In this document: piece after piece, positions 37,477 to 62,532 of the stretch
Position numbering within the stretch: the first letter of the stretch is position 1
Layout of the letters: every line of letters begins with the position of its first letter
DNA from: an uncultured Ignavibacteria bacterium
Lineage (GTDB): Bacteria; Bacteroidota; Ignavibacteria; Ch128b
DNA: 64,000 nt
Assembly (NCBI GenBank): GCA_937944105.1
Contig: CALDZP010000034.1
Span: 38,262-102,261, forward strand
Direction of reading: 5' to 3'
The notes under the pieces: model-generated
What the model was told of the DNA's origin: nothing
Seen by the model: only the letters and a program-made list of their open reading frames with translations
Database searches by the model: none
Position numbers and translations under genes: made by a program

Positions 37477-37658
37477 ATTTACGATTCTCCATTATTGTTT
37501 TGATTATAAATGAAATATATTAAAACTTTCTGTTGCTGGAGATGTAAAAATTTTGGAATGATAGCAGGAAAGAATGATATAATGATATGCAGAAAAAAGA
37601 TACAAATTAAAAATTTTTTTAATTCGATGAAGATAAAGACCCTCCATAATAAATTAAG

Positions 37659-37732
37659 TACCCCCGAGAGGATTCGAACCTCCGACACGCGGTTTAGGAA
37701 ACCGCTGCTCTATCCTACTGAGCTACGGGGGC
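37659..37732 (-). tRNA. tRNA-Arg (anticodon CCT)
   Basis: The reverse complement GCCCCCGTAGCTCAGTAGGATAGAGCAGCGGTTTCCTAAACCGCGTGTCGGAGGTTCGAATCCTCTCGGGGGTA folds as a cloverleaf with anticodon stem GCGGT/ACCGC, loop TTCCTAA and T-loop GGTTCGAATCC. Confidence 0.85.
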
Positions 37733-37848
37733 AATTTTTATTATTGCATAAGCAATTTAAAAATTTCAGTTTTTATATAAAATAAAACTAACTTTGGAAC
37801 CATTATTCTTAAAACGTTTGTTATTTGCGAAAAAAAGGATTCTGATTT

Positions 37849-40134: not shown

Positions 40135-40162
40135 GAATTTTATTGGGAGGTGATTTAGCAAA

Positions 40163-41638: not shown

Positions 41639-42464
41639 AAAAGTAAGTTTCGATACCAGTAAATTAGTTACAACAAAGTACTCAACTTCTTTTAGTCTTG
41701 GTATATTAACTCTGGATAAAAAATTAAGGAAACATATTTACGCAATTTATGGTCTAGTTAGAATTGCTGATGAAATTGTTGATACTTTCCATCATCTTGA
41801 TAAAAAGAAATTGCTAGACGAACTGAAAAATGAAACTTATAAATCCATTAGTAATAGATTCTCGTCTAACTTAGTTCTTAATTCATTCCAGATAACAGTC
41901 AATGAATATAAGATACCCAAAGAATTAATTGATGCATTTTTCCATTCAATGGAGATGGATACATATAAAAATAATTTTAGTCGAGAAGATTATGATAAAT
42001 ATGTTTATGGATCAGCGGAAGTAGTTGGCTTAATGTGTCTTAAAATTTTTGTTGATGGCGATGAAGATAAGTATAAAGAACTAAGAGAGTATGCTCGAGC
42101 ACTTGGTTCAGCTTTTCAGAAAGTAAATTTTCTTAGAGATATTGGTAGTGATTTAAATGATCGTCATAGGATTTACATTCCTGAAGTGCCAGAAGTTAGT
42201 GAAATAACAAATGAAGAAAAACAAAAACTAGTTCAGGAAACCGAAAGAGAATTTAGTTTAGCTCTTGAAGGAATTAAAAGGTTACCCAATTCTGCAAAGT
42301 TGGGTGTCTATTCTACTTACTTGTATTACTTGGCTTTGCTAAGAAAAATCAAGAAAAAGCAATTAGACTACTTATTAAGTAGAAGAGTAAGAGTTAATAA
42401 TTTTCACAAAATTTTACTTTTACTAAAAGCTTTTTTACAGGTTAAGGTTTTAAAATTAATATGA
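41622..42464 (+). CDS. crtB: Phytoene synthase
   Basis: 'YAIYGLVRIADEIVD' and 'YVYGSAEVVGLM', 'RDIGSDL' squalene/phytoene synthase motifs. Confidence 0.8.
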   Translation: MIQLYEKVSFDTSKLVTTKYSTSFSLGILTLDKKLRKHIYAIYGLVRIADEIVDTFHHLDKKKLLDELKNETYKSISNRFSSNLVLNSFQITVNEYKIPKELIDAFFHSMEMDTYKNNFSREDYDKYVYGSAEVVGLMCLKIFVDGDEDKYKELREYARALGSAFQKVNFLRDIGSDLNDRHRIYIPEVPEVSEITNEEKQKLVQETEREFSLALEGIKRLPNSAKLGVYSTYLYYLALLRKIKKKQLDYLLSRRVRVNNFHKILLLLKAFLQVKVLKLI

Positions 42465-42997
42465 TTTCAATTATTCTAATTTTTATTTTTCTTTTTAAGT
42501 CTTTTCCCGATTACAATTCCAGTGAAAAAGAATTGATCAGGCGTTTATTTTATTTTTCTATAGAGTCCAAAGATACTCTTAAAATTTTTGAAGATAAATT
42601 AAAAAAAATAGATAAAGAATTAGACTCCAACTTTAAAGATGCGTATTACGGAGCTTATCTAACTTTAGTAGCTAAACATTCAATAAATCCTTACACTAAG
42701 TACTTTAAATTAAAGGAAGGTTTAGAATTCTTAAATAAATCAATTAAAAATGATCCTGAAAAACTTGAGTTTAGATTCTTAAGATTATCTATACTAAATT
42801 ATGTGCCTTCTTTTTTAGGTTTTGACAATTTTTTTTATGAAGATTACAGACAAATAAAAAATCTAATAATAAAGAAAGATTATACCGAACTTGATAGAAA
42901 AATTCATAAAGGTATTCTTGAATTTTTGTTGCGAAGTCAAAAAATAAGTGAAGATGAAAAACATTTCTTAGGGAATATTTATAAAGACTTTAAATGA
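42461..42997 (+). CDS. Hypothetical protein embedded in carotenoid operon
   Basis: 178 aa; N-terminal hydrophobic segment; start and stop both overlap the flanking crt genes. Confidence 0.3.
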   Translation: MISIILIFIFLFKSFPDYNSSEKELIRRLFYFSIESKDTLKIFEDKLKKIDKELDSNFKDAYYGAYLTLVAKHSINPYTKYFKLKEGLEFLNKSIKNDPEKLEFRFLRLSILNYVPSFLGFDNFFYEDYRQIKNLIIKKDYTELDRKIHKGILEFLLRSQKISEDEKHFLGNIYKDFK

Positions 42998-43668
42998 CTG
43001 ATTATTCAATTATTCTTATCTCAACAATTATAATCCCGTTTATTTTTTCATTTGAGAAAAAAGTTAATTTTATTAGTAAAATAAAAACTGTTCTAAAGGT
43101 TATTTTTATTGTTTTTATTCCTTACATCATCTGGGATATTGTTTTTACAAATTACAGTGTTTGGGGATTTTCTGAGGAAAAAGTTTCCAGATTAAAGATT
43201 TTATCATTACCAATTGAAGAGCATTTATTTTTCTTTTGCATACCTTACACTTTAATTTTTATATATGAAGTTATTAATTTTTATTTAATTGATTCCAAGC
43301 TGAAATTTAATCACAATTTTGCTTTATTATTTGGTATTATCCTTCTAACAATTGCGATAATAACTTATCCAAAAGCATATACATCATTACAATTTTTAAT
43401 TACATCAATTTTGTCTTTTTATATTTGGCTAAAAAAGTTGGAGATATTTTTATCAAAAAATTTCTGGATTTTTATTATTGTCTCTTTCATTGGCTTTATT
43501 GTAATTAATTATTTCTTGACATCAATACCTATTGTTGTTTACAATAGTTCACAAATTCTTGGCATAAGAATTCTTACAATTCCAGTTGAGGATTTCTTTT
43601 ATCATTTCACTCTTACAACCGTTCTGATAATTTTGTATAAATCTTTTCATAGATTAAATGAAAAATAA
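42994..43668 (+). CDS. Lycopene cyclase domain protein (fused CrtYc/CrtYd type)
   Basis: 224 aa polytopic; two 'PxE(E/D)' motifs ('LPIEEHLFF', 'IPVEDFFYH') characteristic of the lycopene-cyclase domain. Confidence 0.6.
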   Translation: MTDYSIILISTIIIPFIFSFEKKVNFISKIKTVLKVIFIVFIPYIIWDIVFTNYSVWGFSEEKVSRLKILSLPIEEHLFFFCIPYTLIFIYEVINFYLIDSKLKFNHNFALLFGIILLTIAIITYPKAYTSLQFLITSILSFYIWLKKLEIFLSKNFWIFIIVSFIGFIVINYFLTSIPIVVYNSSQILGIRILTIPVEDFFYHFTLTTVLIILYKSFHRLNEK

Positions 43669-45133
43669 AATTATCATAATTGGTTCCGGATTTGGTGGAT
43701 TATCTGCTGCAATACATCTTGCTGCAAAAGGATATGAAGTTACTATCTTTGAAAAAAATAGTAAACTGGGTGGTAAAGCAGGTGAAATTGTTGAACAAGG
43801 TTTTCGTTTTGATACTGGACCGACTTTGTTGACTATGCCATTTGTTCTAGAAAATTTATTCAATGTAGGCAATTTTAATATTAATGATTTTATTTCGATC
43901 AAATCAAAAGATATTGTGACAAAATATTTTTTTAATGATGGTACAAATTTTTATCAATATTTTAATAGAGATAGACTTCTCTTAGAATTTGAAAAAGTTT
44001 GCCCAAATTCATCTGCTGAATTTATCAAGTTTATTAATTACTCAAAAAAAATTTATGATTTAACCGCCGAATTATTTTTATTTCAACCTTTTCTTGAAAT
44101 TAAAAATATTCTTCAACTGAAGAGCTTAAAGACATTATTTAAAATTAACCGAATTGATCCGTTTAGAACTGTTCATAATGCTAATAATGGTTTTTTTAAG
44201 GACAAAAAGTTTGTACAACTCTTTGATAGGTTTGCTACCTATAATGGTTCCAATCCATTCAAAGCACCAGCAACATTAAATATTATCCCATTTGTTGAAT
44301 TTGAATTTGGGGGTTACTTTGTTGAAGGAGGAATTTATAGAATTATTAATGCTCTTGAGAAGATAGCTCAAAAATTGGAAGTAAAAATTTATAAATCTTC
44401 AAATGTTGAGAAGATCTTGGTTAAAAATCAAAAGGTTGAAGGGATACTTATAGATGGAGAAAAATTTGACGCTCAAATTATAATTTCAAACTCCGATTTG
44501 TTCAATACCTACAAGTTATTGATTGGAGATGTGAAAAATTCTGAAGCTAATAAATATATAAAACAAGAGTTATCTACTTCGGCAATAATATTTTACTGGG
44601 GTGTAAGTACAAACTCTGAAAATTTAGAAATGGATAACATTCTTTTCTCAGAAGACTACCAGAAAGAATTTCATCAATTATTTGATCAGAAAGTTGTTCC
44701 AAACGATCCAACAATTCACATACATATATCGTCGAAAAAAAATTTTTTAGATGCTCCCAAAGGTTTTGAAAATTGGTATGTAATGATTAATGCACCTTCA
44801 ATTAATAAACAAAACTTTGATATTGAAGAAATAAGAGAAAGAGTTTTACAAAAGATCAAAAAAATGACTAAGATTGATTTAAGTAATAAAATTGTTTTTG
44901 AAAAATTTAAAACTCCATTAATGCTTGAAGAGGAAACATCAGGTTTATATGGCAGTCTTTATGGTCCCTCACACAACAGATTTTACTCAGCTTTTTTAAG
45001 ACAGAGAAATAAATCTTCTGTTATTGATGGTTTATATTTTTGTGGGGGGACTGTTCATCCTGGTGGGGGAATACCATTAGCAATTCTTTCGGGTAAAATT
45101 GTATCAGAAATTGTAGATAAGAACTTGAGATGA
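43658..45133 (+). CDS. CrtI-family carotenoid desaturase/ketolase paralog (CrtD- or CrtO-like)
   Basis: 'IIIIGSGFGGLSAAIHL...GGK' FAD fold; C-terminal 'GGTVHPGGGIPLA'. Confidence 0.65.
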   Translation: MKNKIIIIGSGFGGLSAAIHLAAKGYEVTIFEKNSKLGGKAGEIVEQGFRFDTGPTLLTMPFVLENLFNVGNFNINDFISIKSKDIVTKYFFNDGTNFYQYFNRDRLLLEFEKVCPNSSAEFIKFINYSKKIYDLTAELFLFQPFLEIKNILQLKSLKTLFKINRIDPFRTVHNANNGFFKDKKFVQLFDRFATYNGSNPFKAPATLNIIPFVEFEFGGYFVEGGIYRIINALEKIAQKLEVKIYKSSNVEKILVKNQKVEGILIDGEKFDAQIIISNSDLFNTYKLLIGDVKNSEANKYIKQELSTSAIIFYWGVSTNSENLEMDNILFSEDYQKEFHQLFDQKVVPNDPTIHIHISSKKNFLDAPKGFENWYVMINAPSINKQNFDIEEIRERVLQKIKKMTKIDLSNKIVFEKFKTPLMLEEETSGLYGSLYGPSHNRFYSAFLRQRNKSSVIDGLYFCGGTVHPGGGIPLAILSGKIVSEIVDKNLR

Positions 45134-45783
45134 TCGAAGCTAAACATAATGAGTTTTTTAGAAAAATTTTTAATGTTTATATCGATTGGCAACTGAAAAA
45201 ATATTTTAACAATTTCTATTTGATTGATGAATTGAATATTGAAGCTAAGGACGATTCATTATTAGTATTGCCTAATCATTTTTCATGGTGGGATGGTTTC
45301 TTCGTTGACTTGATTTACCGAAAATTATTTAGTGATTACAAATTATACATGATGGTGCTTGAAGAGACAATTAAAAAATTTTGGTTTTTCAATCATATTG
45401 GCGCTTTTACTATAAATCCAAAAAATCCAAAAGATATAAATAAATCTTTTAACTACGCTGCTAAGTTATTAAAAGGAACGAAAAATTTTGTTGTTATTTT
45501 TCCACAAGGGGAATTACACGCTTATTCGACTAAAGTAAACTTGAAAAAAGGAGTAATTGATTTGATTATTAACGGAAATTGTGAATCTAATCTACTTATG
45601 CTGGCAATGAAAATACTCTATTTAAATGAAAAAAAGCCTGATGTATTTTTTCATTGTAAATTTTCAAAAGCTTTTGATTACAGATTTGAAGGACAAAAAT
45701 TTGTTGATGATTTTAATGAAAATATCTTAAATCTCGAGACAAAAATTTCTGATCCAAATTATAAAAAAATTAAGTTATTATGA
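45130..45783 (+). CDS. LPLAT-family acyltransferase (CruD-like carotenoid glycoside acyltransferase candidate)
   Basis: 'PNHFSWWDG' (HxxxxD) and 'FPQGE' acyltransferase motifs; position in the operon. Confidence 0.55.
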   Translation: MIEAKHNEFFRKIFNVYIDWQLKKYFNNFYLIDELNIEAKDDSLLVLPNHFSWWDGFFVDLIYRKLFSDYKLYMMVLEETIKKFWFFNHIGAFTINPKNPKDINKSFNYAAKLLKGTKNFVVIFPQGELHAYSTKVNLKKGVIDLIINGNCESNLLMLAMKILYLNEKKPDVFFHCKFSKAFDYRFEGQKFVDDFNENILNLETKISDPNYKKIKLL

Positions 45784-46895
45784 TTGATTTTTTATTTTGT
45801 GCTCTTTTATCGTTAAACATTTTTTTTATATTAATTGTATTATTTAATTTTTTCTCGCCTTTAAATCTACAGGTTCCTAAGTCAACCAAGTTAAGCCTAG
45901 AAAAAAATATTTCTGTTTTAATTCCAGCAAGAAATGAAGAAGATAATATTAAAAATTGTCTTGAGGATGTTTTTAAGCAAGATCTTGAACATAAAGAAGT
46001 TATTTGTTTAGATGATGATTCTACAGATGACACCCTTAATGTTTTGTTGGATCTCAAAAAGAGATATGGAGAGTTAAGAATTATACAAGGTAAGGAGTTG
46101 CCTGATGGTTGGACAGGTAAAAATTGGGCTTGTTATCAACTGGCAGTAAATTCAACAGGAGATTTTTTGGTTTTTATTGATGCTGATGTTAGATTGAAAA
46201 AATTTGCAATAAAGTCAGCTATTTCATTGATGGAAAAATATGATATTAAAATGTTGTCAATATTTCCCACTCAAGTTATGAGAACAATTGGAGAATATCT
46301 GATAGTCCCATTGATGAATTGGTTTTTACTTACTTTTCTTCCTTTAATATTCGTTCGAAAAATTTCTCATTCTTCGTTTGTTGCTGCTAATGGCCAGTTT
46401 ATGATTTTTCGAAGAGATGCTTATTTCAAAATAGGAGGTCATCAGGCGGTTAAAAATAAAATCGTTGAAGATATGGAATTAGCCAGGTTAATGAAAAAAA
46501 ATAATTGTAGGATTATGACATTATTAGGAGGAGATTTAGTAACTGCAAGAATGTATAATAGCTTTTTAGATGGATTAAATGGTTTTTCAAAAAATTTTTT
46601 CTCAGGGTTCAATACCAGTTATTTTAAATTTTCATTCTTTCTGTTTTTCATTTTAATTGTTTTTTTAACACCGTTTTTGTTAGTGTTTATTGATGTAAAG
46701 TTTTTCATTGTAGTGGGATTGATTTTAATACAGAGAGTTTTGATTTCTAAAAAATCAAATCAGAACATTTTTATAAATCTGCTTTTATTACCTTTGCAAT
46801 TATTAATGGTCTTAGTTATTGGAATTAGATCAATGATTTTAACTAACAGAGGTGAATTAAATTGGAAAGGGAGAAATTTAAGTCACATAAAATAA
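45780..46895 (+). CDS. Family-2 glycosyltransferase (CruC-like carotenoid glycosyltransferase candidate)
   Basis: 'VLIPARNEEDNI', 'LDDDSTD' GT2 motifs; C-terminal TM helices. Confidence 0.65.
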   Translation: MIDFLFCALLSLNIFFILIVLFNFFSPLNLQVPKSTKLSLEKNISVLIPARNEEDNIKNCLEDVFKQDLEHKEVICLDDDSTDDTLNVLLDLKKRYGELRIIQGKELPDGWTGKNWACYQLAVNSTGDFLVFIDADVRLKKFAIKSAISLMEKYDIKMLSIFPTQVMRTIGEYLIVPLMNWFLLTFLPLIFVRKISHSSFVAANGQFMIFRRDAYFKIGGHQAVKNKIVEDMELARLMKKNNCRIMTLLGGDLVTARMYNSFLDGLNGFSKNFFSGFNTSYFKFSFFLFFILIVFLTPFLLVFIDVKFFIVVGLILIQRVLISKKSNQNIFINLLLLPLQLLMVLVIGIRSMILTNRGELNWKGRNLSHIK

Positions 46896-47503
46896 TTTTC
46901 TTAATATTGTTAATTTTATACTGTATTGGGATTGTACTTCATTTTATATCATCTTTTAATCATTATCTAAAATTCCTTAATCCAATTTTTTTAGTAACGG
47001 TTTTTTTAATTGTTACAGTTGATAAAAGTGTTGAAAAAAAATTTATAACTTGGGTAATTATGTCGTACTTAATTACATTGTCTATAGAAATACTTGGAGT
47101 TCATACTGGATTGATTTTTGGCAGTTACCAATATGGAAATAACCTTGGAGTAAAATTATCAGGGGTTCCGATAGTGATTGGATTAAATTGGATTACATTA
47201 CTCCTTGGGAGTATTGGATACGCTTCAATGGTAAAAACTTCTGTTTATTTAAAGAGTTTTATAAGTTCGATCTTAATGGTTGGATTTGATGGAATACTGG
47301 AATTAGTTGCATCAAAATTAAATTACTGGTTCTGGAGAGATGATATTATACCTTACCAGAATTTTATTGCCTGGTTTTTGATTTCATATATTCTGAGTTA
47401 TTTTTATTACGTATTGGTTCCTGGAAAAAACTTAATACTGGCAAAATATAATTATATCATTCAATTTCTCTTCTTTGTTATACTTTATATTTTTTTACAT
47501 TAA
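46862..47503 (+). CDS. Polytopic membrane protein, possible carotenoid-biosynthesis (CruF/Caroten_synth-like) protein
   Basis: 213 aa, 6-7 TM; last gene of the crt operon with overlapping start; family assignment from memory only. Confidence 0.35.
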   Translation: MEREKFKSHKIIFLILLILYCIGIVLHFISSFNHYLKFLNPIFLVTVFLIVTVDKSVEKKFITWVIMSYLITLSIEILGVHTGLIFGSYQYGNNLGVKLSGVPIVIGLNWITLLLGSIGYASMVKTSVYLKSFISSILMVGFDGILELVASKLNYWFWRDDIIPYQNFIAWFLISYILSYFYYVLVPGKNLILAKYNYIIQFLFFVILYIFLH

Positions 47504-48056
47504 TATTGTTTTTTGAAAAAACTCATAAAAACAACTTAATATTTTAAGAAATAAACACTTGTTTATTTCTAACCTTCGTTATTCTCGCCTTTATAGCCTT
47601 AACTTAATATTGAACATTCTTTTAAGTAAACTGATTTACAAATGCTAAATAAAGATATTTTTTAAATGTACAAAAGTTACAGCTAAGTAAAATAACTTAT
47701 GAATACCTTAAGTGTAATTTGACATTTATTTTTTATCCTTGAGTTTCTGTTACTTTCTCATAATGTATTTTATATTTATTGTAAGATTAAATTAACCACT
47801 GCTTAGATTCTTTCTTAATCAATTATCCGCGAAAAGAGAAACTCTAGATAATAGCATTTGGGTTATAATTTCCTTCAGCTGTCTAATATTAGCCAGTGCT
47901 TTTTAATAAAAACCTTCTTTTTTAGAGAAAAAAGAAGGCTTTACTTCTGGCACTTGGTTTGACTAATAAATTCTCAAATAGTTCATTTACAAAGATGAAT
48001 AAAAAAGTAATACTAAAATCACAAACATTTAATCACAAAACATAATGGAGGTTCAT

Positions 48057-48578
48057 ATGAAACGCTTAATTCTTTCACTAATTGTTCTTTCTTTTATTTC
48101 TTCTTTATCATATGCACAATCAAGTGCAAGTGCAACGGCAACCGTATTAGCTCAACTTAAGAAAGGACTTTCGGTTTCTCTCATTGGTGGAAATTTAAAT
48201 TTTGGTGAAATAATTCTGAATGGAAGTCCACAATCACCAACTATCGCTCCTTCTTCAGGTGCAAATTTCAGAGTAATCGGTCATCCAAATAAAAATATTA
48301 TGATTACTTTTAACAATGTGACTCTTGATAACAATGCTTGGGTAAGCAGCAATGGTGGAACAAATGGAACAATGGTATTTACTCCTGTTGTAAAGCATAC
48401 AGGATCGAACAGTTCTTATGATACCCCAACAGATGTTTTAAGCGGTAATTCTTATAATCTTGTAAATGTTTCAGGTGATGGTTATTTGTATTTATGGGTA
48501 GGTGGTTCACTCTCAATTGCTGCAAATCAACCTCATGGAGACTATACAGGAACATTTAGCATTACGGTTGCCTACTAA
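48057..48578 (+). CDS. Small secreted SCPU/CsuA-like (fimbrial-subunit-like) protein; stand-alone paralog of the 56.6-58.1 kb genes
   Basis: GGAGG 5 nt upstream of ATG 48057; signal peptide; shared motifs 'NFGEIIL', 'HTG.NS', 'LYLWVGGS', C-terminal 'GDYTGTFSITVAY'. Confidence 0.5.
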   Translation: MKRLILSLIVLSFISSLSYAQSSASATATVLAQLKKGLSVSLIGGNLNFGEIILNGSPQSPTIAPSSGANFRVIGHPNKNIMITFNNVTLDNNAWVSSNGGTNGTMVFTPVVKHTGSNSSYDTPTDVLSGNSYNLVNVSGDGYLYLWVGGSLSIAANQPHGDYTGTFSITVAY

Positions 48579-48598
48579 AAGTTTACTTTATTTCATAT

Positions 48599-48630
48599 GC
48601 CCCAGAATTTTCCTGGGGCTTTTTTATTTT
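48599..48630 (+). terminator. Rho-independent terminator
   Basis: GCCCCAG-aattttc-CTGGGGC hairpin followed by TTTTTTATTTTT. Confidence 0.7.
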
Positions 48631-48706
48631 TAATCTTTCAATCAATTTTTCATTCATTTTAAATTAAAATATTTTTTCGCTTTGTTAATTCTTTTATATT
48701 TGCTTT

Positions 48707-49261
48707 ATGAAAAAATTAAACCTCGGTTGTGGAAATAAAATACTTGATGGATACGTTAATCTTGATGTAGTTGATTATGGCGGTAATTTAATTCATGATT
48801 TAAATTCCTTCCCGTATCCTTTTGATGACAATACTTTCGATGAAATTCTTGCCAGCCATATTTTAGAACACCTTCAAAACTTTAACAAAGTAATCAATGA
48901 ATTATATAGAATTTCGAAACCAAACGCAATAATAAAAGTTTATGCACCTTTTTTCTTGAATACAAAATTCTTTGGAGATCCTGATCATAAAATTCCATTC
49001 TCAATTAGAACTTTTGATAATTACGAATTCATTGAAAATAAAAAATTGAAATTCTACGAGCGATGGAAATTGAATCATAGAACTAATTACCAAACAACAG
49101 CTAAATTCGAAATACTTGAAAAGAAATTTAATGTCTCCAATTTTGTTCCATTAAGATGGCTTAATTTTATTGTAAATTTAGAACCTGTCGTTTATGAGAG
49201 ATTTTTTGCTGGCATTCTATCACCCGAAGAAGTCATTTTTATACTAAGAGTCGTAAAATAA
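48707..49261 (+). CDS. Class I SAM-dependent methyltransferase
   Basis: 'LNLGCGNKILDGYVNLDV' motif I; 'ILASHILEHL' motif. Confidence 0.6.
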   Translation: MKKLNLGCGNKILDGYVNLDVVDYGGNLIHDLNSFPYPFDDNTFDEILASHILEHLQNFNKVINELYRISKPNAIIKVYAPFFLNTKFFGDPDHKIPFSIRTFDNYEFIENKKLKFYERWKLNHRTNYQTTAKFEILEKKFNVSNFVPLRWLNFIVNLEPVVYERFFAGILSPEEVIFILRVVK

Positions 49262-49289
49262 ATTTGCATCATATACTTGACTTTATTAT

Positions 49290-49500
49290 ACTCTTTTTGA
49301 TGTGAATGTTCTTTTCAATCGATGTGGATAAGTTGTGGAAATCGTTCCGCTGTGAAAAGTTTTCACATCAGGAATTTTAATCATAAAAGTTTTCCACATC
49401 AAATAATGTTAATTTCAAAACATTCTAAACCATAATTAATTGAATTACAATAACTTACGAAGATTATTTGATGTGGATAACTTGTGGATAATTTTTACTT
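49290..49500. other. Chromosomal replication origin (oriC) DnaA-box cluster
   Basis: Perfect TGTGGATAA (=TTATCCACA) at 49323-49331, 49472-49480 and 49483-49491; degenerate boxes TGTGGAAAT (49334), TTTTCCACA (49390), TTTTCACA and TGTGAATGT; AT-rich; directly upstream of dnaA. Confidence 0.7.
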
Positions 49501-49538
49501 AAACTTAAACTTTAAGTCATTCAACCAAGTTAAAATAA

Positions 49539-51047
49539 ATGGGTTTAAATATGAGTGTGGATAACTTACAAAATAAAAATAGTCAAAAAGTACTGATTAA
49601 AAACGATACAAAACAAAGAATTTTTAAAAATCCAGAGAAAGCAAAAGAAATTTGGAATTCTTTTATTGAGGTAATTAAGAAAAATATAAATGGTCTTTCT
49701 TTTAAAACTTGGTTCGAACCAATTGAACCAGTCGGTTTTGACAAAGATGAGTTAGTTATCAAAGTGCCAAATGATTTATCCTGGGATTATATTGAAGTGA
49801 ATTTTAATTCATTAATTAAAAAAGCTCTTTTAGCAGCATTGGGTGAAAATGGAAAGTTAACATATATATACGATACACAAAAAGATGAAACCTTAGAAAT
49901 AATTAAAGAAAATAAAGAATACTCCAAAGAAAAAATTAATAATGGTAATAACTCATGGTATCAGGGTGTAACTAAAAATATTAATTGGAACATTAATAGC
50001 TCAAAAGAGCAGGAGAATTTTGAAACAAATTTAAATGAGAAATTTACTTTTGATAATTTTATAAAAGGTGAAAGTAATCAATTTGCTCGTGCAGCAGCTT
50101 TTGCGGTAGCAAATTCACCTGGAGGGACTTCATTCAATCCTTTATTTATTTATGGAGGTGTTGGACTTGGAAAAACGCATCTTATTCAGGCAATTGGAAA
50201 TTATGTTGTGGAAAATAAAAAAGTTAAAAAAGTCTTGTATACTACTGCAGAGAAATTTACAACAGAATTTGTTGATTCAATAAAAAAAGGTAATACAAAT
50301 GAATTTACAGCGTTCTATCGAAAAGTTGATCTTTTAATTATAGATGATATTCAATTTTTATCAGGAAAGGAATCCACAACAGATACTTTCTTTCATATCT
50401 TTAATAGCCTTTATCAATTAGGTAAGCAAATTGTTCTTTCGTGTGATAAACCACCCAAGAGTTTATCGGGGATTGATGAAAGATTAATCTCAAGATTTCA
50501 ATGGGGCTTATCGGTTGATATTCAACCACCAGATTTTGAAACAAGGATAGCAATTCTTATCAAGAAGAGTGAGTCATTTAATCTTGATATTGATTTAAGT
50601 ATTCTCGAATACATTGCAGCAAACATAACAAATAATATTCGTGAACTTGAAGGCGCTTTGATAAAACTACTTGCAAAAGCATCTCTAGAGAACAGAGAAA
50701 TTACACTTGATCTTGCCAGAGAAATAGTAAAGTCTATTGCAACCGAAAAAAAGTCGACCCTTACAATTGATCAAATACAAAATATTGTGGCAGAATATTT
50801 TGGTTATTCCCCTGATGTTTTGATCTCTAAAACAAAGAAGAAAGAGTATGTTCTTGCGAGACAAATAGCTATGTATTTTGCAAAGAAATTTACAAATGCC
50901 TCTCTTAAAACTATCGGTTTGAACTTTGGTGGTCGTGATCATACAACTGTAATTCATGCGCTACAATGCATTGAAGAACAAATGAAAGATGATTCCTTTG
51001 TGGCTATGTTGAGTACAATTCAGGGAAAAATTGAATACAGAACTTGA
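49539..51047 (+). CDS. dnaA: Chromosomal replication initiator DnaA
   Basis: 'GGVGLGKTHLIQAIGN' Walker A, 'LIIDDIQFL', C-terminal DNA-binding 'VLARQIAMYFAKKFT...GGRDHTTVIHA'. Confidence 0.9.
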   Translation: MGLNMSVDNLQNKNSQKVLIKNDTKQRIFKNPEKAKEIWNSFIEVIKKNINGLSFKTWFEPIEPVGFDKDELVIKVPNDLSWDYIEVNFNSLIKKALLAALGENGKLTYIYDTQKDETLEIIKENKEYSKEKINNGNNSWYQGVTKNINWNINSSKEQENFETNLNEKFTFDNFIKGESNQFARAAAFAVANSPGGTSFNPLFIYGGVGLGKTHLIQAIGNYVVENKKVKKVLYTTAEKFTTEFVDSIKKGNTNEFTAFYRKVDLLIIDDIQFLSGKESTTDTFFHIFNSLYQLGKQIVLSCDKPPKSLSGIDERLISRFQWGLSVDIQPPDFETRIAILIKKSESFNLDIDLSILEYIAANITNNIRELEGALIKLLAKASLENREITLDLAREIVKSIATEKKSTLTIDQIQNIVAEYFGYSPDVLISKTKKKEYVLARQIAMYFAKKFTNASLKTIGLNFGGRDHTTVIHALQCIEEQMKDDSFVAMLSTIQGKIEYRT

Positions 51048-51979
51048 TAGAATTTGAATATATATCTTAAAATTGTAATAATTAGTAATCTCTGTACAAT
51101 AAAAACCTATTAATTAAATCTTTTATAAAATCGCATTGCAGTTGAATTCATAAAATTGATTAATTTGTTTAATAGAACATTAAATCTATTTTTTTAATTG
51201 ATTTTACTAATAAGTCAGGAGATTCAATTTAGTTGTAATCAAGGATGTGACGATTTATTTTGTTTTACAATTAAGGTAAGATTCACAGATTTTTCTAATT
51301 GCAATTTTAGAGGAATTCAAGAATGGCAAATCACATTTAGAAGTCTGTGGTTTAGTGTTAAAAAGTAAAGATTTGCTTAAAAATGCTCTGACTTTTTATT
51401 AAATTTATTCAGTGTTTTAGATACAATTTCTCGGGTCTACTTTAATTTTTTTGTTGGCTATCCTTAAAGTATTATTTAGTTAACCTGTCCCAATTTTTCG
51501 GGGTCATATTCTAATTTTTGATCTTAATCTAAATTTAACTTGCAAAATGTCCTGGCATCCATCAGCACCAGAATCCCGAATAAGATTTATTGTTATGCCT
51601 CCAGAATTTGCAATGAAAATTAATAGTAAATTTAAATTTTGAGCCTTGTGCTGAATATTTTTTGTCATTTTTTTGACTGTCAAGCTGAACTTGTTCCAGC
51701 ATTCTTCTTAGAACCCCGAAACATCCTGATATTCATAAGGACATGGTTTGTAATGAAACTTATTGGGCAGTCAATAAAAGTTTTATGCATTAAGTAATGA
51801 TATCGGTCTATTTATTTAAAATGTTCGACAAGAATTAGAAAATTCTAATTGTATCTCTCCATTAAAATTTACAAACTATTAAAACTCGATTCTTGAAAAA
51901 TTAATAAAATTTTTACAGAGAGTTTATTATTTCTTAACAATGCTACTTTAGATTGGCCTCAAAAATTGGAAGGTAAAAT

Positions 51980-56438: not shown

Positions 56439-56457
56439 TCTTAACTTGGTTGATATT

Positions 56458-56487
56458 ACCTGTATCTCCAGATATGGAGGTACAGGT
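56458..56487. other. 12-bp near-perfect hairpin between T9SS-cargo gene and fimbrial operon
   Basis: ACCTGTATCTCC-agatat-GGAGGTACAGGT (one G-U pair); no adjacent T-run. Confidence 0.4.
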
Positions 56488-56619
56488 AAACTTAATATTC
56501 AACATTTTTTATTTAGTAATTAATTACTTTGTTGCTGTAATTTAGATTAGCCATTTAATAATCCCAGACTTATTATTTATTATCATTCCTTTTTATTAAT
56601 TAATTTTTTAACTTTAATC

Positions 56620-57141
56620 ATGATTAGATTGATTAAACATACATTAATGTTTTTCCTAATGTATAACTTATGCATTGGACAACAGTATAACATTTCTGCA
56701 ACTGGACAGGTTAATATGATAAAACCACTTTCAATTACTTCGATTAACAGCACAATAAATTTTGGGGAAATTATCTTAAGTGGTTCTAATTTCATAAAAA
56801 GTCTGAGTCCATCGGAAGGAGCAATTTTTAAGATTGAGGGTCATCCAAATCGAAATGTAATAATTTCTTTTAACCCGGTGACTCTTTCCAATTCAGAATG
56901 GGTCGCTCAAAATGGTGGAACACTTGGTACGTTAAATTTTGAAGCAAATGTTGTTCATACTGGAGCGAATTCGTCTTATCAATCTCCTGTTTCTGTACAA
57001 AATGGAAATTCATATCAGCTTGTAAATTCGTCTGGTATAGGCATTTTGTATTTATGGGTTGGTGGTTCAATAAATATTCAAGCTAATCAGCCAGTAGGGG
57101 ATTACCAGGGAATATTCAGTATAATGGTATCTTATCAATGA
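56620..57141 (+). CDS. SCPU/CsuA-like fimbrial-subunit-like secreted protein (paralog 1 of operon)
   Basis: Signal peptide; 'INFGEIILSGS', 'HTGANSSY', 'LYLWVGGS', C-terminal 'GDYQGIFSIMVSY'; about 45% identical to the 48057 paralog. Confidence 0.5.
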   Translation: MIRLIKHTLMFFLMYNLCIGQQYNISATGQVNMIKPLSITSINSTINFGEIILSGSNFIKSLSPSEGAIFKIEGHPNRNVIISFNPVTLSNSEWVAQNGGTLGTLNFEANVVHTGANSSYQSPVSVQNGNSYQLVNSSGIGILYLWVGGSINIQANQPVGDYQGIFSIMVSYQ

Positions 57142-57650
57142 AAAAATATATTTTAATGATTTTATTTTTTCTTTTTTCAGTTGATTGTTGGAGTCAGACT
57201 AATGAAACAGCGAGCCTTAATATAAGAGCTTCGCTAAAGAGAGGGATCAGTGTTCTTAATCAAAATAACATTTTAAGTTTTGGGGAAATTATTTTGTCAG
57301 GTTCATCTTTTGAATTAAATAAATCACCTCAAGAAGGATTAAGATTTAAGATTTTTTCAGATCCAGCAAAACCTGTTATGATAAGTTATAGTAATGTTGA
57401 GTTAAATTTATCAACTAATTCTGGGAATTTGACAAATGATAATTTACTTTTTGTTCCGAAGGTTTATCATACTGGTGGTAATTCTGATTTTATAGATCCA
57501 GTTGAAGTATTTTCTGGAATTTATTATCAACCACAAAATCAATCTGGTGAAGGTATTTTAAATTTATGGATTGGAGGAACACTTAAAATAAGTCAGTCAA
57601 ATATTCAAGGTGATTATTCAGGCACACTTATAATAACAATTGCATATTAA
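57138..57650 (+). CDS. SCPU/CsuA-like fimbrial-subunit-like secreted protein (paralog 2)
   Basis: Signal peptide; 'SFGEIILSGS', 'YHTGGNS', 'LNLWIGGT', C-terminal 'GDYSGTLIITIAY'; 4-nt overlap with the upstream gene. Confidence 0.5.
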   Translation: MKKYILMILFFLFSVDCWSQTNETASLNIRASLKRGISVLNQNNILSFGEIILSGSSFELNKSPQEGLRFKIFSDPAKPVMISYSNVELNLSTNSGNLTNDNLLFVPKVYHTGGNSDFIDPVEVFSGIYYQPQNQSGEGILNLWIGGTLKISQSNIQGDYSGTLIITIAY

Positions 57651-58116
57651 AATGATGAAAATTCGATTTTATATTTATGTTATAGTTTTTATAATTCTTT
57701 CATATAGTTGTGGCTTCGGTCAATTAATTATTCAAAAAATTAATGATTTAGATTTTGGTGATGTATTTATTGGTTATTCTGCCACGGTGAGTGATCTTTC
57801 ACCAAATGCTGCAAAATTTTTAGTTTATCAAAATTCACAACCACGAGTGGATTTACTTGTTAAATTTACTTTACCTTCTCAACTCACTAATGGGCAAAAT
57901 TCAGTCTCAATAGATTTTAATAATTTTGCTTCATGGGCAAGAGATGATGTTCAGACTGGCAGAATTTACTTTAATCCATATTCTCCTGTATTAATTAAAA
58001 ATGTACGTAGAAATAGGTATCATTATATCTGGTTGGGAGGGACAATTATGAGTTCTTCTGATATCTTACCTGGTTTATATACAGGAACAATCATTCTAAC
58101 TGTAGAGGTATTGTAG
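57640..58116 (+). CDS. Divergent SCPU-like small secreted protein (paralog 3; minor subunit or adaptor candidate)
   Basis: Signal peptide; 'DFGDVFIG', 'IWLGGT', C-terminal 'GLYTGTIILTVEVL'. Confidence 0.4.
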   Translation: MHIKMMKIRFYIYVIVFIILSYSCGFGQLIIQKINDLDFGDVFIGYSATVSDLSPNAAKFLVYQNSQPRVDLLVKFTLPSQLTNGQNSVSIDFNNFASWARDDVQTGRIYFNPYSPVLIKNVRRNRYHYIWLGGTIMSSSDILPGLYTGTIILTVEVL

Positions 58117-58117
58117 T

Positions 58118-58948
58118 ATGAAAAGAAAAATAATTGTTTTAATTACTTTTTATTTTGTTAGTAATTTGTATTCTCAAATTTTAATTTCACCTTATATTGT
58201 TTACACAGATAATAAGAATAAAATAGGCAATTTTATCGTTCAAAATGAATCAGAAAATATCTATGAAATAAATGTAGGATTTCTTTTTGGTTATCCTGTA
58301 TCAGACTCAATAGGACAAATTTCAATGAAATATATTGAGAATGATTCATCTTATTCTTACTCAATAAATAATTTTATTAGAGCATTCCCTAAAAAATTTA
58401 TTCTTGAACCCAAGAAACGACAGATTGTTCGTTTAACAGTAAAAGCTCCAGATACACTTGCAAATGGAACTTACTGGACAAGAATAATTACCTCAGCGGT
58501 GCCTTATTCAGAACAGATAGATTCAATTTCGAGTGGCTTGACAGCAAAAATTAAATTTGTCTTGAATCAGGTAACGACTTGTATGTACCGAGTTAATCCA
58601 GCGGAAAGTGGACTAAAGGTTGAAAACCATGAAGTGAAATATGATTCGAACACAACTACTTTAGTATTAAATTTAAAAAGAGTTGGCAACTCACCTTTTA
58701 TTGGAAATCTTTTAATGAAAATCCTTGACGAAGAGGGTAATGTCATCAAAGAATTAATTGAGTATGTTCCAGTATATTTTGATCTTCAAAAAAGGTTTGT
58801 TTTTAATAATTCAGATTTCGAACCAAACAAAAGTTATATTATCCAAATAACCGCAAGTAATATCGAAAAAGAAGAAATTCCTGAAAGTACTTTAAAGGTA
58901 GTGGTAGTTCCTGAATTAAAGATCCCAATAGAAATTCCATTTAATTAA
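58118..58948 (+). CDS. Periplasmic fimbrial-chaperone-like (PapD/CsuC-like) protein
   Basis: Signal peptide; 'ISPYIVYTD...NFIVQNESENIYEINV' resembles the chaperone N-domain (RxIY...vxN) and 'FILEPKKRQIVRLTV' the PPlFrL block; about 270 aa, typical size. Confidence 0.45.
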   Translation: MKRKIIVLITFYFVSNLYSQILISPYIVYTDNKNKIGNFIVQNESENIYEINVGFLFGYPVSDSIGQISMKYIENDSSYSYSINNFIRAFPKKFILEPKKRQIVRLTVKAPDTLANGTYWTRIITSAVPYSEQIDSISSGLTAKIKFVLNQVTTCMYRVNPAESGLKVENHEVKYDSNTTTLVLNLKRVGNSPFIGNLLMKILDEEGNVIKELIEYVPVYFDLQKRFVFNNSDFEPNKSYIIQITASNIEKEEIPESTLKVVVVPELKIPIEIPFN

Positions 58949-58953
58949 AAGTT

Positions 58954-61900
58954 ATGTTCTGCTTGCTCTTAATATTTTTGAGTTTTTTGGACGTTTATAT
59001 TACCTCTGATTATCCTACTACAAATGTTTATACTTCAAACATTGAATTTTTCTATGCACGTAATTTCCAAGATGAAACTGAAATTGAAGTGATTAATAAT
59101 CTAAATCCGACGCTAAGATGGTTCAAAGTAAATGATGCTATTAAGTATTTAATAGTAATCAATGAATTTGAAGGAAATAATTTGAAATCAAAACCAGTAA
59201 TTATTCGTTACTTTGAGGTACAGGATACATTTTTTGTTATTCCATCTCTAATCCTTGAAGATGGGAAAATATATAGTTGGAATGTAAGGTCATTTAACGG
59301 AAAGCTATGGAGTAATTTTGGAAAAGAATTTTATTTTAAAGTATTCTTAAAAGATTCGAAAGCTCAATCTGATGATAAAACAATAAGTACAATTTCTCCT
59401 GGCAAACTGTCTCCAGAAATTGAATTAATAAACACCATTAACCCAGTATTTAAGTGGTTCAAAATTAAATCGGCAGATTATTATAATTTTATTCTTGAAA
59501 AAGAAGAAAAGCCGGGGAGTTACAAAAAAATTTTATCCTCAGAAAATTTTGGTACAATAAGTGATACTTTTCTTATTCTGCAGGGTAGTCTACTTAAACA
59601 GGGAAATTTATATCGATGGAGAGTTTGGTGTAAAAACAAATTCGGTTTGTTATTGAAATCAGATTATAGATACTTTAAAGTTTCTTTACCAAAAATTTTA
59701 GTTGTACCTGAACCGATTTACCCAGGATATTCTTCTGAAGGGAAAGAAATACTGGCTACCACAACTCCAACATTTATATGGGGGAAAAATCCTTCAGCAA
59801 GTTCTTATTCAGTTGCAATAAGTAAGAAAGATTCTGATGGGAAATACAGACTTATTTTTGACAGTGAAAAAAATTTTAAGATAATAGATACATTCTTCAT
59901 TTTACCTCCCAATATTATTGAGAATAATTCGGAATACAGGTGGAATCTAAAAGTGAATTTGAAAGATGGAAGAACTCTCTACTCAAAAAGATTATATTTC
60001 AAAGTGATTTTTGAAGAACAAAAAACATTGGAAAAGTTTATCCAGAATGAAAGCACTAAAAATGAATTGGAAGAATTTTCATTGAATATGGAATATGCTG
60101 GTATATTTAAAAATCTTGTTTCATCAATCTACCTTGATGAAAAAATATTTATTTCGCTTTCAGAATTTTTATCGAATCTGCAAATTCCATTTGAAAAAAA
60201 GGGAAAAAATATATTCACAGGTTACATTAATGATGATAAAAATAATTTTACAATTGATTTTACTCAAAACAGAATAAAAAAGCAGGGGATTGAATTAAAA
60301 ATCAATCCAGAAGATTTCATCGAATATAATGAAGATTATTTTGTATCAACTTCCTTTTGTGAAAAATTTTTACCTCTTAAATTAGAATTTGATTTTTCTA
60401 ATCTTACCTTAAGCGTTTTAAGTGAAGTAGTATTACCCGTTTATTCTAAATATATTATTGAACAAAGATTGACATCATTAAGAAAAAATGAAAAAGTAAA
60501 AACACTACCTCTTCTTTTCAATAGAGAAAGATATTTACTTAATGGTTTTATTTTAGATTACTCTTTATCTCAAACTTATGTAAAGCATCAAAGAAGCGGA
60601 TACTTTTACAGACTTGCCTTTGGTGGTGAGCTACTTTATGGGGATTTTTATTATTCTCGTCAGCAATTTTTCTCTCAGAATTTTAAAAGTAACGTTGAAG
60701 ATATTAATTGGAAATTTATTTTTAATCCGAACAAATATATTACTCAAATTTCACTCGGTGATAATTTTATTGATGCAATTAACATTTACACATATCGTGG
60801 ATTTATGTTGACAAATGAAGTCGTTGAACCACGAAAAAAAATTGGCAATTATATTTTTCAAGATAAAACAGATCCGAGCAGCTTAGTGGAGTTGTATATA
60901 AATAATGAGTTATATGATATAAAAAGATCAAATGAAAATGGTGATTTTTCATTTGAGATTCCATTGAATTACGGAATGTCCAACCTCGAATTAAGAATTC
61001 ATACATTAATGGGAGAAACAAAAAGTCTTCGAAGAGTTTTCCAGATTCCTTATGAATTTTTACCAGCAGGTATTTTCAATTATAAAACCACTGCTGGTGT
61101 AATAAAGTTTACAAATAAAAAATTTGCATACTCTGAATTTAGTTACGGTATTGCTGATTATTTTACTCTTGCTACAGGTGGAGAATTTATTTATGATTCT
61201 ACAAATAAATATCTAAACTACTTTGGAAAATCTTCTTTCAGAATTTTGCCTAATTTCTATTTAAACCTATTCTACTCACCAAAGATTTTTACAAAAATTC
61301 AAGGTTCATATATAGGATCTAATTTTACTTCTTATAGTTTCGAATATATTGACAATAAAAATCATAAATTTTATAACCCATCAAGAATTAATAAATCATA
61401 TAAAGGTAGCTTCTTTTTACCATTGAAACTCGAAAATAATGAGCTGGGATTTTATTTTAATCAAGAATATTTTAAGTCAGATTTCATCAAAAGATATAAT
61501 ATAAATGTCAATGCTTTTTATCTATACAAATGGTTGGCTTTCAATCTTGGAATTATAAATGAGAATCTTTACTCTAACATAAAAATAATTAGAAGAGAAA
61601 TAACAGGTGGAACTAACATTAATTTTAATACATTTACAAATAGTAACTCAATTTTGAATCGAAGTTATTTATCAATTCGTGCTAATTACAACCTTTTAGT
61701 AAAAGATTTTCAAAGTCTCTCTGTTTTCGCAGCCACAACATTTCTAAATAGTATTAGATTTCAAATAAGTTTTGAAAGATTATTTAAGATTAATGTTACT
61801 AATGTAAGTGTAAATTTATTTTTAGATCTTCCGCAAGCAAGATATTTCGTTAATTCAAATTTAAAAGATGTAATCAATCAACAAATAAGTGGATCGATTG

Positions 61901-62532
61901 GTTATAGTTCACAAATAAATCAACTATATCTTTACAGCGAACCACAAATTGGTCGCTCAGCAATTTATATTGAAGGCTTTGAAGATAGAAATATGAATGA
62001 AAAAAAAGATGGAAATGAGAACATTGTCAAAGATTTAAATTTCTCTATTAATTCTGCATCATATTCTAAAAATTTAAAAGATGGGAAGCTAATTTTAGGT
62101 TTGAATCAATATCAAGAATATAGTTTAAGAGTTATAGATTTTAGAATGAGTGAATTAAATTTATCTACTGAGTTTTCAGAATTTAAGCTCTTAACCGATG
62201 GAAATAGAATAAAAGTAATTAGATTACCTTTTTATGAAACTGGGGAAATTGGCGGATTGGTTCTTCGTAATATTAAGAATGAAGAGATCCCAGTTCGTAA
62301 TGTGAAAATTATAATTACGAATTTATCGACTCAAAAAGAATACATTATTAATACGTTCAGTGACGGTTCGTTTTATTTATACGGGTTAAGGAAAGGAAAA
62401 TATGTAATAAGAGTTGATGAGAATTATTTAAATCGTCATTCTTTGAAATCAAATCCTGAACAAATTGAACTTGAAATTGACCCAACAAAGAATCAACTAA
62501 TCTTTGAAGAATTAAAATTTACTCTGTATTAA
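58954..62532 (+). CDS. Outer-membrane usher-like protein, unusually large (1192 aa)
   Basis: 'VELYINNELYDIKRSNENGDFSFEIPLNYGMSNLELRIH...FQIPYE' aligns with the conserved usher block (VyvNg...GpF.i..lp..G.n.l.v...G....f.vP); beta-rich body; C-terminal beta-sandwich (CarbopepD_reg-like); three N-terminal W-rich repeats of about 100 aa. Confidence 0.5.
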   Translation: MFCLLLIFLSFLDVYITSDYPTTNVYTSNIEFFYARNFQDETEIEVINNLNPTLRWFKVNDAIKYLIVINEFEGNNLKSKPVIIRYFEVQDTFFVIPSLILEDGKIYSWNVRSFNGKLWSNFGKEFYFKVFLKDSKAQSDDKTISTISPGKLSPEIELINTINPVFKWFKIKSADYYNFILEKEEKPGSYKKILSSENFGTISDTFLILQGSLLKQGNLYRWRVWCKNKFGLLLKSDYRYFKVSLPKILVVPEPIYPGYSSEGKEILATTTPTFIWGKNPSASSYSVAISKKDSDGKYRLIFDSEKNFKIIDTFFILPPNIIENNSEYRWNLKVNLKDGRTLYSKRLYFKVIFEEQKTLEKFIQNESTKNELEEFSLNMEYAGIFKNLVSSIYLDEKIFISLSEFLSNLQIPFEKKGKNIFTGYINDDKNNFTIDFTQNRIKKQGIELKINPEDFIEYNEDYFVSTSFCEKFLPLKLEFDFSNLTLSVLSEVVLPVYSKYIIEQRLTSLRKNEKVKTLPLLFNRERYLLNGFILDYSLSQTYVKHQRSGYFYRLAFGGELLYGDFYYSRQQFFSQNFKSNVEDINWKFIFNPNKYITQISLGDNFIDAINIYTYRGFMLTNEVVEPRKKIGNYIFQDKTDPSSLVELYINNELYDIKRSNENGDFSFEIPLNYGMSNLELRIHTLMGETKSLRRVFQIPYEFLPAGIFNYKTTAGVIKFTNKKFAYSEFSYGIADYFTLATGGEFIYDSTNKYLNYFGKSSFRILPNFYLNLFYSPKIFTKIQGSYIGSNFTSYSFEYIDNKNHKFYNPSRINKSYKGSFFLPLKLENNELGFYFNQEYFKSDFIKRYNINVNAFYLYKWLAFNLGIINENLYSNIKIIRREITGGTNINFNTFTNSNSILNRSYLSIRANYNLLVKDFQSLSVFAATTFLNSIRFQISFERLFKINVTNVSVNLFLDLPQARYFVNSNLKDVINQQISGSIGYSSQINQLYLYSEPQIGRSAIYIEGFEDRNMNEKKDGNENIVKDLNFSINSASYSKNLKDGKLILGLNQYQEYSLRVIDFRMSELNLSTEFSEFKLLTDGNRIKVIRLPFYETGEIGGLVLRNIKNEEIPVRNVKIIITNLSTQKEYIINTFSDGSFYLYGLRKGKYVIRVDENYLNRHSLKSNPEQIELEIDPTKNQLIFEELKFTLY

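Follow-up and report, generated by a model that had tools for sequence, protein, structure and literature searches.

A stand-alone DUF4402 pilin gene near dnaA, putative major subunit gene of a divergent chaperone-usher pilus in Ignavibacteria

This study concerns D1, a stand-alone gene for a pilin-like protein in a stretch of 64,000 nucleotides from an uncultured Ignavibacteria bacterium (assembly GCA_937944105.1, contig CALDZP010000034.1, positions 38,262 to 102,261 of the forward strand), which is referred to below as the window. Three paralogues of D1, namely D2, D3 and D4, lie with a chaperone gene and a gene for an usher homologue in an operon spanning 56620-62532 (Table 1). Our analysis of the sequence, of predicted folds and of related genomes suggests that D1 is the displaced first gene of this operon, and that its product may be the major subunit of a very divergent chaperone-usher pilus.

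Table 1. Features of the D1 gene and of the pilus operon in the window. L numbers denote loci of the genome scan described in the text.
Feature	Coordinates	Strand	Remarks
Conserved upstream block AATTTCCTTCAGCTGTCTAATATTAGCCAGT	47867..47897	+	Conserved in the window, L001, L005, L007 and L008, partly in L009
AT-rich inverted repeat	47909..47942	+	15-nt arms, 93% complementary, 4-nt loop; 5 nt upstream of the -24 element
Sigma-54-like promoter motif	47948..47962	+	TGGCACTTGGTTTGA; -24 TGGCAC, -12 TTGA, 5-nt spacer
Shine-Dalgarno sequence GGAGG	48047..48051	+	5 nt before ATG 48057
D1, DUF4402 pilin-like protein	48057..48578	+	173 aa
Intrinsic terminator	48599..48630	+	GCCCCAG-loop-CTGGGGC and T-run
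D2, DUF4402 pilin	56620..57141	+	Orthologue of operon position 2; N-terminal extension present
D3, DUF4402 pilin	57138..57650	+	Position 3; N-terminal extension present
D4, divergent DUF4402-like pilin	57640..58116	+	No 16-residue N-terminal extension; candidate tip subunit
PapD-like periplasmic chaperone	58118..58948	+	276 aa
Divergent outer-membrane usher homologue	58954..62532	+	1192 aa; 98.5% in hhalign of its family profile against seven classical ushers

The D1 gene and its expression signals

The reading frame of D1 is open over 48045-48578. ATG 48057 is its likely start, since GGAGG lies at the spacing given in Table 1 and the in-frame ATG at 48045, which is unlikely to serve as the start, overlaps this ribosome-binding site. 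The GGAGG is invariant across six aligned orthologous upstream regions. In the window, which is AT-rich (G+C of about 27-33% in 4-kb windows), a full GGAGG 4-10 nt before a gene start occurs only twice, once at D1; no recognisable Shine-Dalgarno sequence precedes D2. The protein begins with a signal peptide (residues 1-20, cleavage between SYA and Q), followed by an N-terminal extension (residues 21-37) with a conserved alternating pattern, A24-A26-A28-V30-A32-L34. It ends in GDYTGTFSITVAY and contains no lipobox cysteine. The exact protein is present in NCBI, ENA and Logan contigs, and the labels on close relatives read Ignavibacterium or Ignavibacteria.

Just after the stop codon of D1 lies a Rho-independent terminator, whose 7-bp stem (48599-48619) contains six G-C pairs and is followed by TTTTTTATTT. 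Its folding energy of -14.2 kcal/mol (z -3.3) was equalled by 0 of 200 shuffled sequences. These data agree with the original prediction, made from the DNA sequence alone, which had described D1 as a stand-alone fourth paralogue with its own translation and termination signals, namely a GGAGG 5 nt upstream of 48057 and a GC hairpin with a T-run at 48599-48630.

The alignment of six orthologous upstream regions revealed an invariant CTGGCA(C/T)-N5-TTG(A/T) amid divergent sequence. In the window, TGGCAY-N5-TTGM has a single match on both strands of the 64 kb, at 47948-47962, and in 17 loci, both stand-alone and operon-linked, the motif precedes the start codon of gene 1, the first pilin gene, by about 55-100 nt. 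Four other matches occurred in the flanks of Ignavibacteria-type loci (roughly 1 Mb, both strands), and relaxed versions were found in L003, L010 and L020. The consensus of sigma-54 promoters is TGGCAC-N5-TTGC. The GG element and the spacing at 47948-47962 are canonical for sigma-54, and the motif is termed sigma-54-like because most orthologues have A or T in place of the C of the -12 element. The motif suggests that D1 may be sigma-54-dependent. A search for genes of RpoN or an enhancer-binding ATPase found no GAFTGA, Walker-A or RpoN-box motif in the window or in loci L001-L030, and a scan of 47400-49600 for sigma-70 promoters gave no more sites than shuffled sequence.

Further upstream, the block at 47867..47897 is conserved in a region around it that is otherwise poorly conserved. 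It holds a perfect palindrome, CTAATATTAG (47883-47892), about 55 nt upstream of the sigma-54-like motif, and might be a site for an activator or a bending protein. The inverted repeat next to the -24 element has its counterpart in orthologous loci, where an A/T palindrome stands at the equivalent position. As a side observation, the intergenic region before D1 (47504-48044) is about 550 nt long in the window and 230-290 nt long in L001 and L005, and the extra 250 nt or so (47504-47760) contain no ORF, Rfam match or conserved block. The long upstream region as a whole gave no Rfam match at E<=1, and a non-coding RNA upstream of D1 was rejected on this basis.

Similar signals accompany gene 1 in related genomes. 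Equivalent terminators follow the stand-alone gene 1 in L001 and L005-L008, and terminators also separate the first two genes of linked operons (L003, L004, L009, L010, L014, L018, L026 and L028). Since motif and terminator go with gene 1 whether it is linked or not, the module of promoter, gene and terminator appears to be ancestral; the gene could therefore have moved without loss of expression. D1 would thus be a self-contained transcription unit consisting of the promoter-like motif, a leader of about 85 nt as judged from the motif position, GGAGG, coding sequence and terminator.

Pilin family and assembly operon

The homology among the four paralogues, which the original prediction had proposed, was detected by BLASTP between D1 and D2 (52% identity, E 1e-57), D3 (41%, E 4e-41) and D4 (27%, E 3e-07). 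As had also been noted, D2 (56620) is the closest relative of D1 among the paralogues inside the window and shares its C-terminal motif, GDYxGxxxxxVxY, which is common to D1 and the operon paralogues. D1 matches the Pfam family DUF4402 (PF14352) with 44.4 bits against a gathering threshold of 25.2 (E 3.2e-11), and the same family is matched by all four window paralogues and by all 44 aligned relatives.

The label "SCPU-like" used in the original prediction could not be retained in the sense of family membership. SCPU (PF05229) gave no match at E<=1 for the four window paralogues and none at E<=10 for the 44 aligned relatives, and a positive control, the CsuA/B sequence from PDB 7zl4, matched SCPU at 3.8e-22. 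In hhalign, the DUF4402 alignment reached a probability of only 4% against CsuA/B and CupE1, restricted to the last 17 residues, in which NQxHGDYTGTFxxTVAY of DUF4402 is aligned with pkaqGdYkDTllvTVnF on the CsuA/B side. Membership of D1 in the SCPU family was thereby ruled out, and the C-terminal motif was presumably the source of the earlier label.

Concerning the fold, the best matches of the D1 model were solved pilins, and the predicted fold is the same as that of CsuA/B. D1 therefore has the properties expected of a Sec-exported subunit with a pilin-type Ig fold. Among the fold matches was also the cannula protein CanX, which is reported to polymerise without a chaperone (PMC12518558). 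At the sequence level the family is remote from solved structures: searches of PDB chains with the pilin, the pilin profile, the chaperone and the usher profile returned no pilin, chaperone or usher, and hhalign was negative for the pilin profile against FimA and for the chaperone profile against FimC. A profile of D1-type relatives and the window paralogues (A2) retrieved 2,911 clusters at 50% identity (E<=1e-3). In the literature searched, no mention of DUF4402, PF14352 or IPR025514 was found.

A genome scan with a 22-sequence DUF4402 alignment yielded 62 loci, given L numbers here, which were annotated by pilin, chaperone and usher HMMs. Among them are arrays in which one to four DUF4402 pilin genes adjoin a chaperone gene and usually also a gene for an usher homologue; such arrays occur in Ignavibacteria, Melioribacteraceae, Bacteroidota, Balneolaceae, Geothrix/Holophagaceae, Armatimonadota and many Alphaproteobacteria. 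The gene order in Ignavibacteria and Melioribacteraceae is pilins, chaperone, usher; Geothrix has a further pilin gene after the usher.

The operon in the window has this order, and a PapD-like two-domain periplasmic chaperone is encoded with its pilins, as judged from a modelled fold that matches YadV, FimC and PapD. The usher homologue at 58954 has no Pfam Usher match. We compared the profile of 21 members of its family (A6) with a profile of seven classical ushers (FimD, MrkC, HtrE, PefC, FedC, FaeD and a Pantoea usher, taken from E. coli K-12 and plasmids), and hhalign gave a probability of 98.5% (E 2.8e-15) over 586 columns, which cover the barrel, plug and C-terminal domains; the probability against FimD alone was 52%. 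This profile-to-profile match suggests that the protein is an outer-membrane usher, which carries a transthyretin-like domain at its C-terminus and a repeat region, specific to the lineage, at its N-terminus. The latter (58954-60093) adds about 380 residues in three repeats of about 110 aa with a weak DUF928-like match, and is absent from the usher homologues of about 880-930 aa in other phyla.

In every operon examined, the pilins at positions 1-3 carry an extension of 15-17 residues after the signal peptide, with a conserved alternating A-x-A-x-A-x-V-x-A-x-L in the D1 type, and the last pilin gene (L003-L028 included) encodes no such extension. The extension would be the N-terminal donor strand of polymerising subunits that is missing from the tip subunit, and D4 is accordingly placed as the candidate for that subunit. 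This is the classical signature of donor-strand polymerisation with a donor-strand-free tip subunit. The chaperone-usher reading of the system is thus supported by the fold of the pilin model, the usher profile homology and the tip-subunit signature, in a system too divergent for routine annotation.

The region upstream of the operon (56436-56630) contains no sigma-54-like motif, only a conserved hairpin. This 12-15-bp hairpin without a T-run (56456-56489) lies upstream of 56620 and directly follows the stop codon of a gene for a T9SS-sorted beta-helix protein, and its sequence is kept in three genomes (the window, L005 and L067); an attenuator, a processing site and a protein-binding site are its candidate roles.

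D1 as the probable displaced first gene of the operon

Many Ignavibacteria operons contain four pilin genes (L003, L009, L012, L014, L015, L026 and L027), and the window has three operon pilins plus the stand-alone D1. Gene 1 of L009 and that of L010 are 70% and 77% identical to D1, respectively, and only 47-51% identical to D2, while gene 2 of these loci shares 53-57% identity with D2 and D4 is matched by their last gene. The neighbour-joining tree contains four positional clades, in one of which D1 and its stand-alone orthologues branch from within the operon-linked gene 1s; the bootstrap values are low (12-64%). Best hits and tree topology, the latter with weak bootstraps, point to D1 as the orthologue of the first gene in the four-pilin operons of related Ignavibacteria. 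By the same comparison, the first gene of the window operon, 56620, corresponds to the ancestral gene 2. D1 would therefore be no spare copy of 56620 but the first gene of the ancestral operon.

These results bear on two explanations that centre on 56620. A recent duplication of 56620, leaving D1 with a redundant function, would fit the 52% identity, the best inside the window, yet D1 orthologues are 70-88% identical across genomes and D1 against D2 stays at 47-54%, which indicates that the two genes split before the Ignavibacteria sampled. D1-type and D2-type genes moreover occupy positions 1 and 2 of the same operons, and recent duplication was rejected on the cross-genome identities and the tree; we regard it as hardly credible. 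The original prediction had also raised the possibility of a phase-variable or alternative major subunit replacing 56620, in keeping with the close relationship and the separate expression signals of D1. A scan of 47300-48800 found no tandem tracts, credible flanking inverted repeats or invertible element, only short AT-rich chance matches, in agreement with the earlier reading by eye of 47504-48044. Since D1 corresponds to position 1 and 56620 to position 2, they are distinct components and not alternatives, and their orthologue groups coexist in the four-pilin operons of relatives. With an arrangement that is stable across at least six genomes, phase variation is thus very improbable.

That stability is seen in the synteny. 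In L001 and L005-L007, the D1 orthologue (82-88% identity) has the carotenoid gene cluster on one side and the methyltransferase gene with dnaA on the other; L008 lacks the carotenoid block but retains the order D1, methyltransferase, dnaA. In L005, as in the window, 8.3 kb separate D1 from the operon downstream. The two lie on different contigs of GCA_013177855.1, D1 on contig 1 (2.65 Mb) and the operon on contig 2, within a block of genes for a TonB receptor, a T9SS protein, D2, D3, D4, chaperone, usher and DJ-1; the gene is therefore truly unlinked there. In the Ignavibacterium clade sampled, as far as these sequences go, D1 is separated from the operon and stands beside the methyltransferase gene and dnaA.

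D1 is the most conserved component of the pilus system, with 82-88% identity between genomes. Between the window and GCA_013177855.1, the identity is 82% for D1, 59% for D2, 50% for D3, 51% for D4 (51-66% across comparisons), 67% for the chaperone and 51% for the usher; the neighbours DnaA and methyltransferase reach 76% and 89%.

Such data might also be explained by a D1 that is secreted or surface-exposed independently of the operon chaperone and usher, with a homology that is only ancestral; candidates are a fibre or coat protein that assembles itself without a chaperone, and an Ig-like protein of the periplasm. The separation from the operon, up to different contigs in GCA_013177855.1, would suit such a protein, as would a promoter-like motif of its own where the operon has none, a conservation far above that of the assembly proteins, the presence of the chaperone-free polymer CanX among the fold matches, and L010, where three pilin genes have no chaperone or usher in roughly 9 kb downstream. 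However, stand-alone D1 co-occurs with an operon that has positions 2-4 only in the checkable cases (the window, L005 and GCA_013177855.1), its orthologue in relatives is the first gene of a chaperone-usher operon, and D1 has kept both the donor-strand-like extension and the C-terminal aromatic motif, as have D2 and D3. We therefore consider an independent D1 unlikely.

A further explanation accepts D1 as part of the pilus and makes it a separately regulated minor subunit, a terminator or anchor like PapH and FimI or an adaptor, which sets fibre length, with D2 or D3 as the major subunit. Independent control of a length-determining subunit would make sense, and D2, at 52% identity to D1, has an N-terminal extension as well. 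Yet D1 belongs to operon position 1, is better conserved than any other component and is preceded by the strongest ribosome-binding site of the system, and its terminator follows directly, similar to the layout downstream of E. coli fimA, whereas D2 lacks a recognisable Shine-Dalgarno sequence. A minor role for D1 is therefore quite improbable, and the displaced major-subunit gene is the reading followed below.

Several side observations concern the loci and the surroundings of D1. In L010 (9901-14508), the three consecutive pilin genes, of positions 1-3, are followed by a small ORF and a 7TM-HD receptor gene; the array is either an operon remnant or an assembly issue of the metagenome-assembled genome (MAG). 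A second, older stand-alone DUF4402 clade (L021-L025 and L029) is 40-43% identical to D1 and has no chaperone within 10 kb; the same genomes carry an operon (L018, L019, L013 and L028), and CGGCAAT-N4-TTGCC, with GG-N10-GC spacing, lies about 38 nt before the start codon. An Ignavibacterium album MAG (L008, 9317-9988) lacks a block of about 10 kb that is present at 37658-47503 of the window, between the orthologue of 36448-37476 and the pilin gene. This block contains tRNA-Arg-CCT, a TonB receptor gene and the carotenoid biosynthesis cluster, and its presence or absence is an indel adjoining a tRNA gene. At the edge of the window, the minus strand of 1-142 holds a truncated cobalamin riboswitch (Rfam RF00174, 79 bits).

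The window contains four perfect DnaA boxes (TTATCCACA), all of them at 49323-49564, between the methyltransferase gene and the first dnaA codons and about 0.7 kb downstream of the D1 terminator. This region is probably oriC or a dnaA control region; GC skew shows no switch there and marks no origin in the window. Proximity to an origin may raise D1 expression further through gene dosage. Between dnaA and a TonB-dependent receptor gene, a stretch of 932 nt (51048-51979) without any ORF of at least 60 aa on either strand may be another candidate origin or unwinding region.

Proposed role and comparison with known pili

Taken together, the most probable reading, to which we assign a probability of about 0.65, is that D1 is a Sec-exported DUF4402 pilin, expressed under its own control as the major subunit of a very divergent chaperone-usher pilus and encoded by the displaced gene 1 of its operon. 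The original prediction of an unlinked, strongly expressed major subunit thus remains the best-supported reading, to which pilin fold, chaperone fold and usher homology have been added; what we infer comprises sigma-54 dependence, the major-subunit role, donor-strand exchange and expression as such. In the proposed mechanism, an enhancer-binding activator of sigma-54 would turn on high-level transcription of D1 alone. D1 would then cross the inner membrane via Sec and be capped by the PapD-like chaperone, and at the usher it would be polymerised by donor-strand exchange through its 16-residue N-terminal extension. If D1 is added in this way onto a short tip of D4, which has no extension, D3 and D2, it would form the bulk of the fibre, that is, the shaft.

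More tentatively, and at slightly less than even odds, we suggest that DUF4402 pilins and a PapD-like chaperone and usher that escape Pfam constitute an undescribed, phylogenetically broad chaperone-usher branch, occurring in Ignavibacteriota, Bacteroidota, Balneolaceae, Acidobacteriota, Armatimonadota and Alphaproteobacteria. The major pilin gene, driven by sigma-54, would in Ignavibacterium have left the operon for a site by dnaA and a DnaA-box cluster, so that subunit supply is controlled, and possibly boosted by dosage, independently of the machinery. In the literature searched, a branch based on DUF4402 is undescribed.

This interpretation would assign a function to the uncharacterised Pfam family DUF4402 and extend chaperone-usher pili to Ignavibacteriota and other non-proteobacterial phyla, in which standard domain models miss the chaperone and usher. 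It also offers a natural case of a putative major pilin gene uncoupled from its assembly operon, which would allow the matching of subunit supply to machinery, and sigma-54 control outside Proteobacteria, to be studied. For annotation, genes called 'hypothetical' that lie near dnaA in these genomes probably encode pilus subunits. As the components are remote homologues of a well-known machine, no new principle is involved.

Among known fibres, the type V pili of Bacteroidota (FimA/Mfa1 of Porphyromonas) resemble the system proposed here: both belong to the FCB superphylum, and strand exchange links Ig-like pilins into a fibre. Their subunits, however, are lipoprotein precursors matured by proteolysis that need no PapD-like chaperone or usher, whereas D1 lacks a lipobox cysteine and is partnered by a chaperone and an usher homologue; D1 is not a type V pilin.

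Archaic (sigma) pili such as Csu of Acinetobacter baumannii (CsuA/B-CsuA-CsuB-CsuC-CsuD-CsuE) and CupE of Pseudomonas aeruginosa are built from SCPU pilins, in contrast to the DUF4402 pilins described here. Compared with Csu and CupE, no gene for a two-domain tip adhesin follows the usher gene, and the tip candidate is a single-domain pilin without extension. The usher of the present system has a transthyretin-like domain at its C-terminus and is missed by the Pfam Usher model, the host phyla include Ignavibacteriota and others and not Proteobacteria only, and the gene for the putative major pilin lies outside the operon.

With the type 1 (Fim) and P pili of E. coli, the system shares an usher that is homologous over the barrel, plug and C-terminal domains (the 98.5% hhalign match), the two-domain PapD-like fold predicted for the chaperone (YadV, FimC, PapD) and a tip subunit without donor strand. 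As in Fim, a structured, terminator-like element follows the first gene; in E. coli, the annotated FimR2 sRNA lies between fimA and fimI. In contrast, there is no detectable sequence similarity to FimA or FimC, and D1 is not linked to the operon. Transcription of fim is switched by an invertible sigma-70 promoter, whereas D1 has a fixed sigma-54-like motif and no invertible element.

The type IV pilin gene pilA of Pseudomonas and Myxococcus and flagellin genes are sigma-54-dependent. Sigma-54 control of the cell exterior is the subject of PMC3162934. Compared with pilA, the fibre proposed here is a chaperone-usher and not a type IV fibre, the -12 element is TTGA/T and not TTGC, and sigma-54 dependence is putative. 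Like these sigma-54-controlled pilA and flagellin genes, D1 is a putative fibre subunit gene with a candidate -24/-12 promoter, monocistronic, closed by a strong terminator and located away from the assembly genes.

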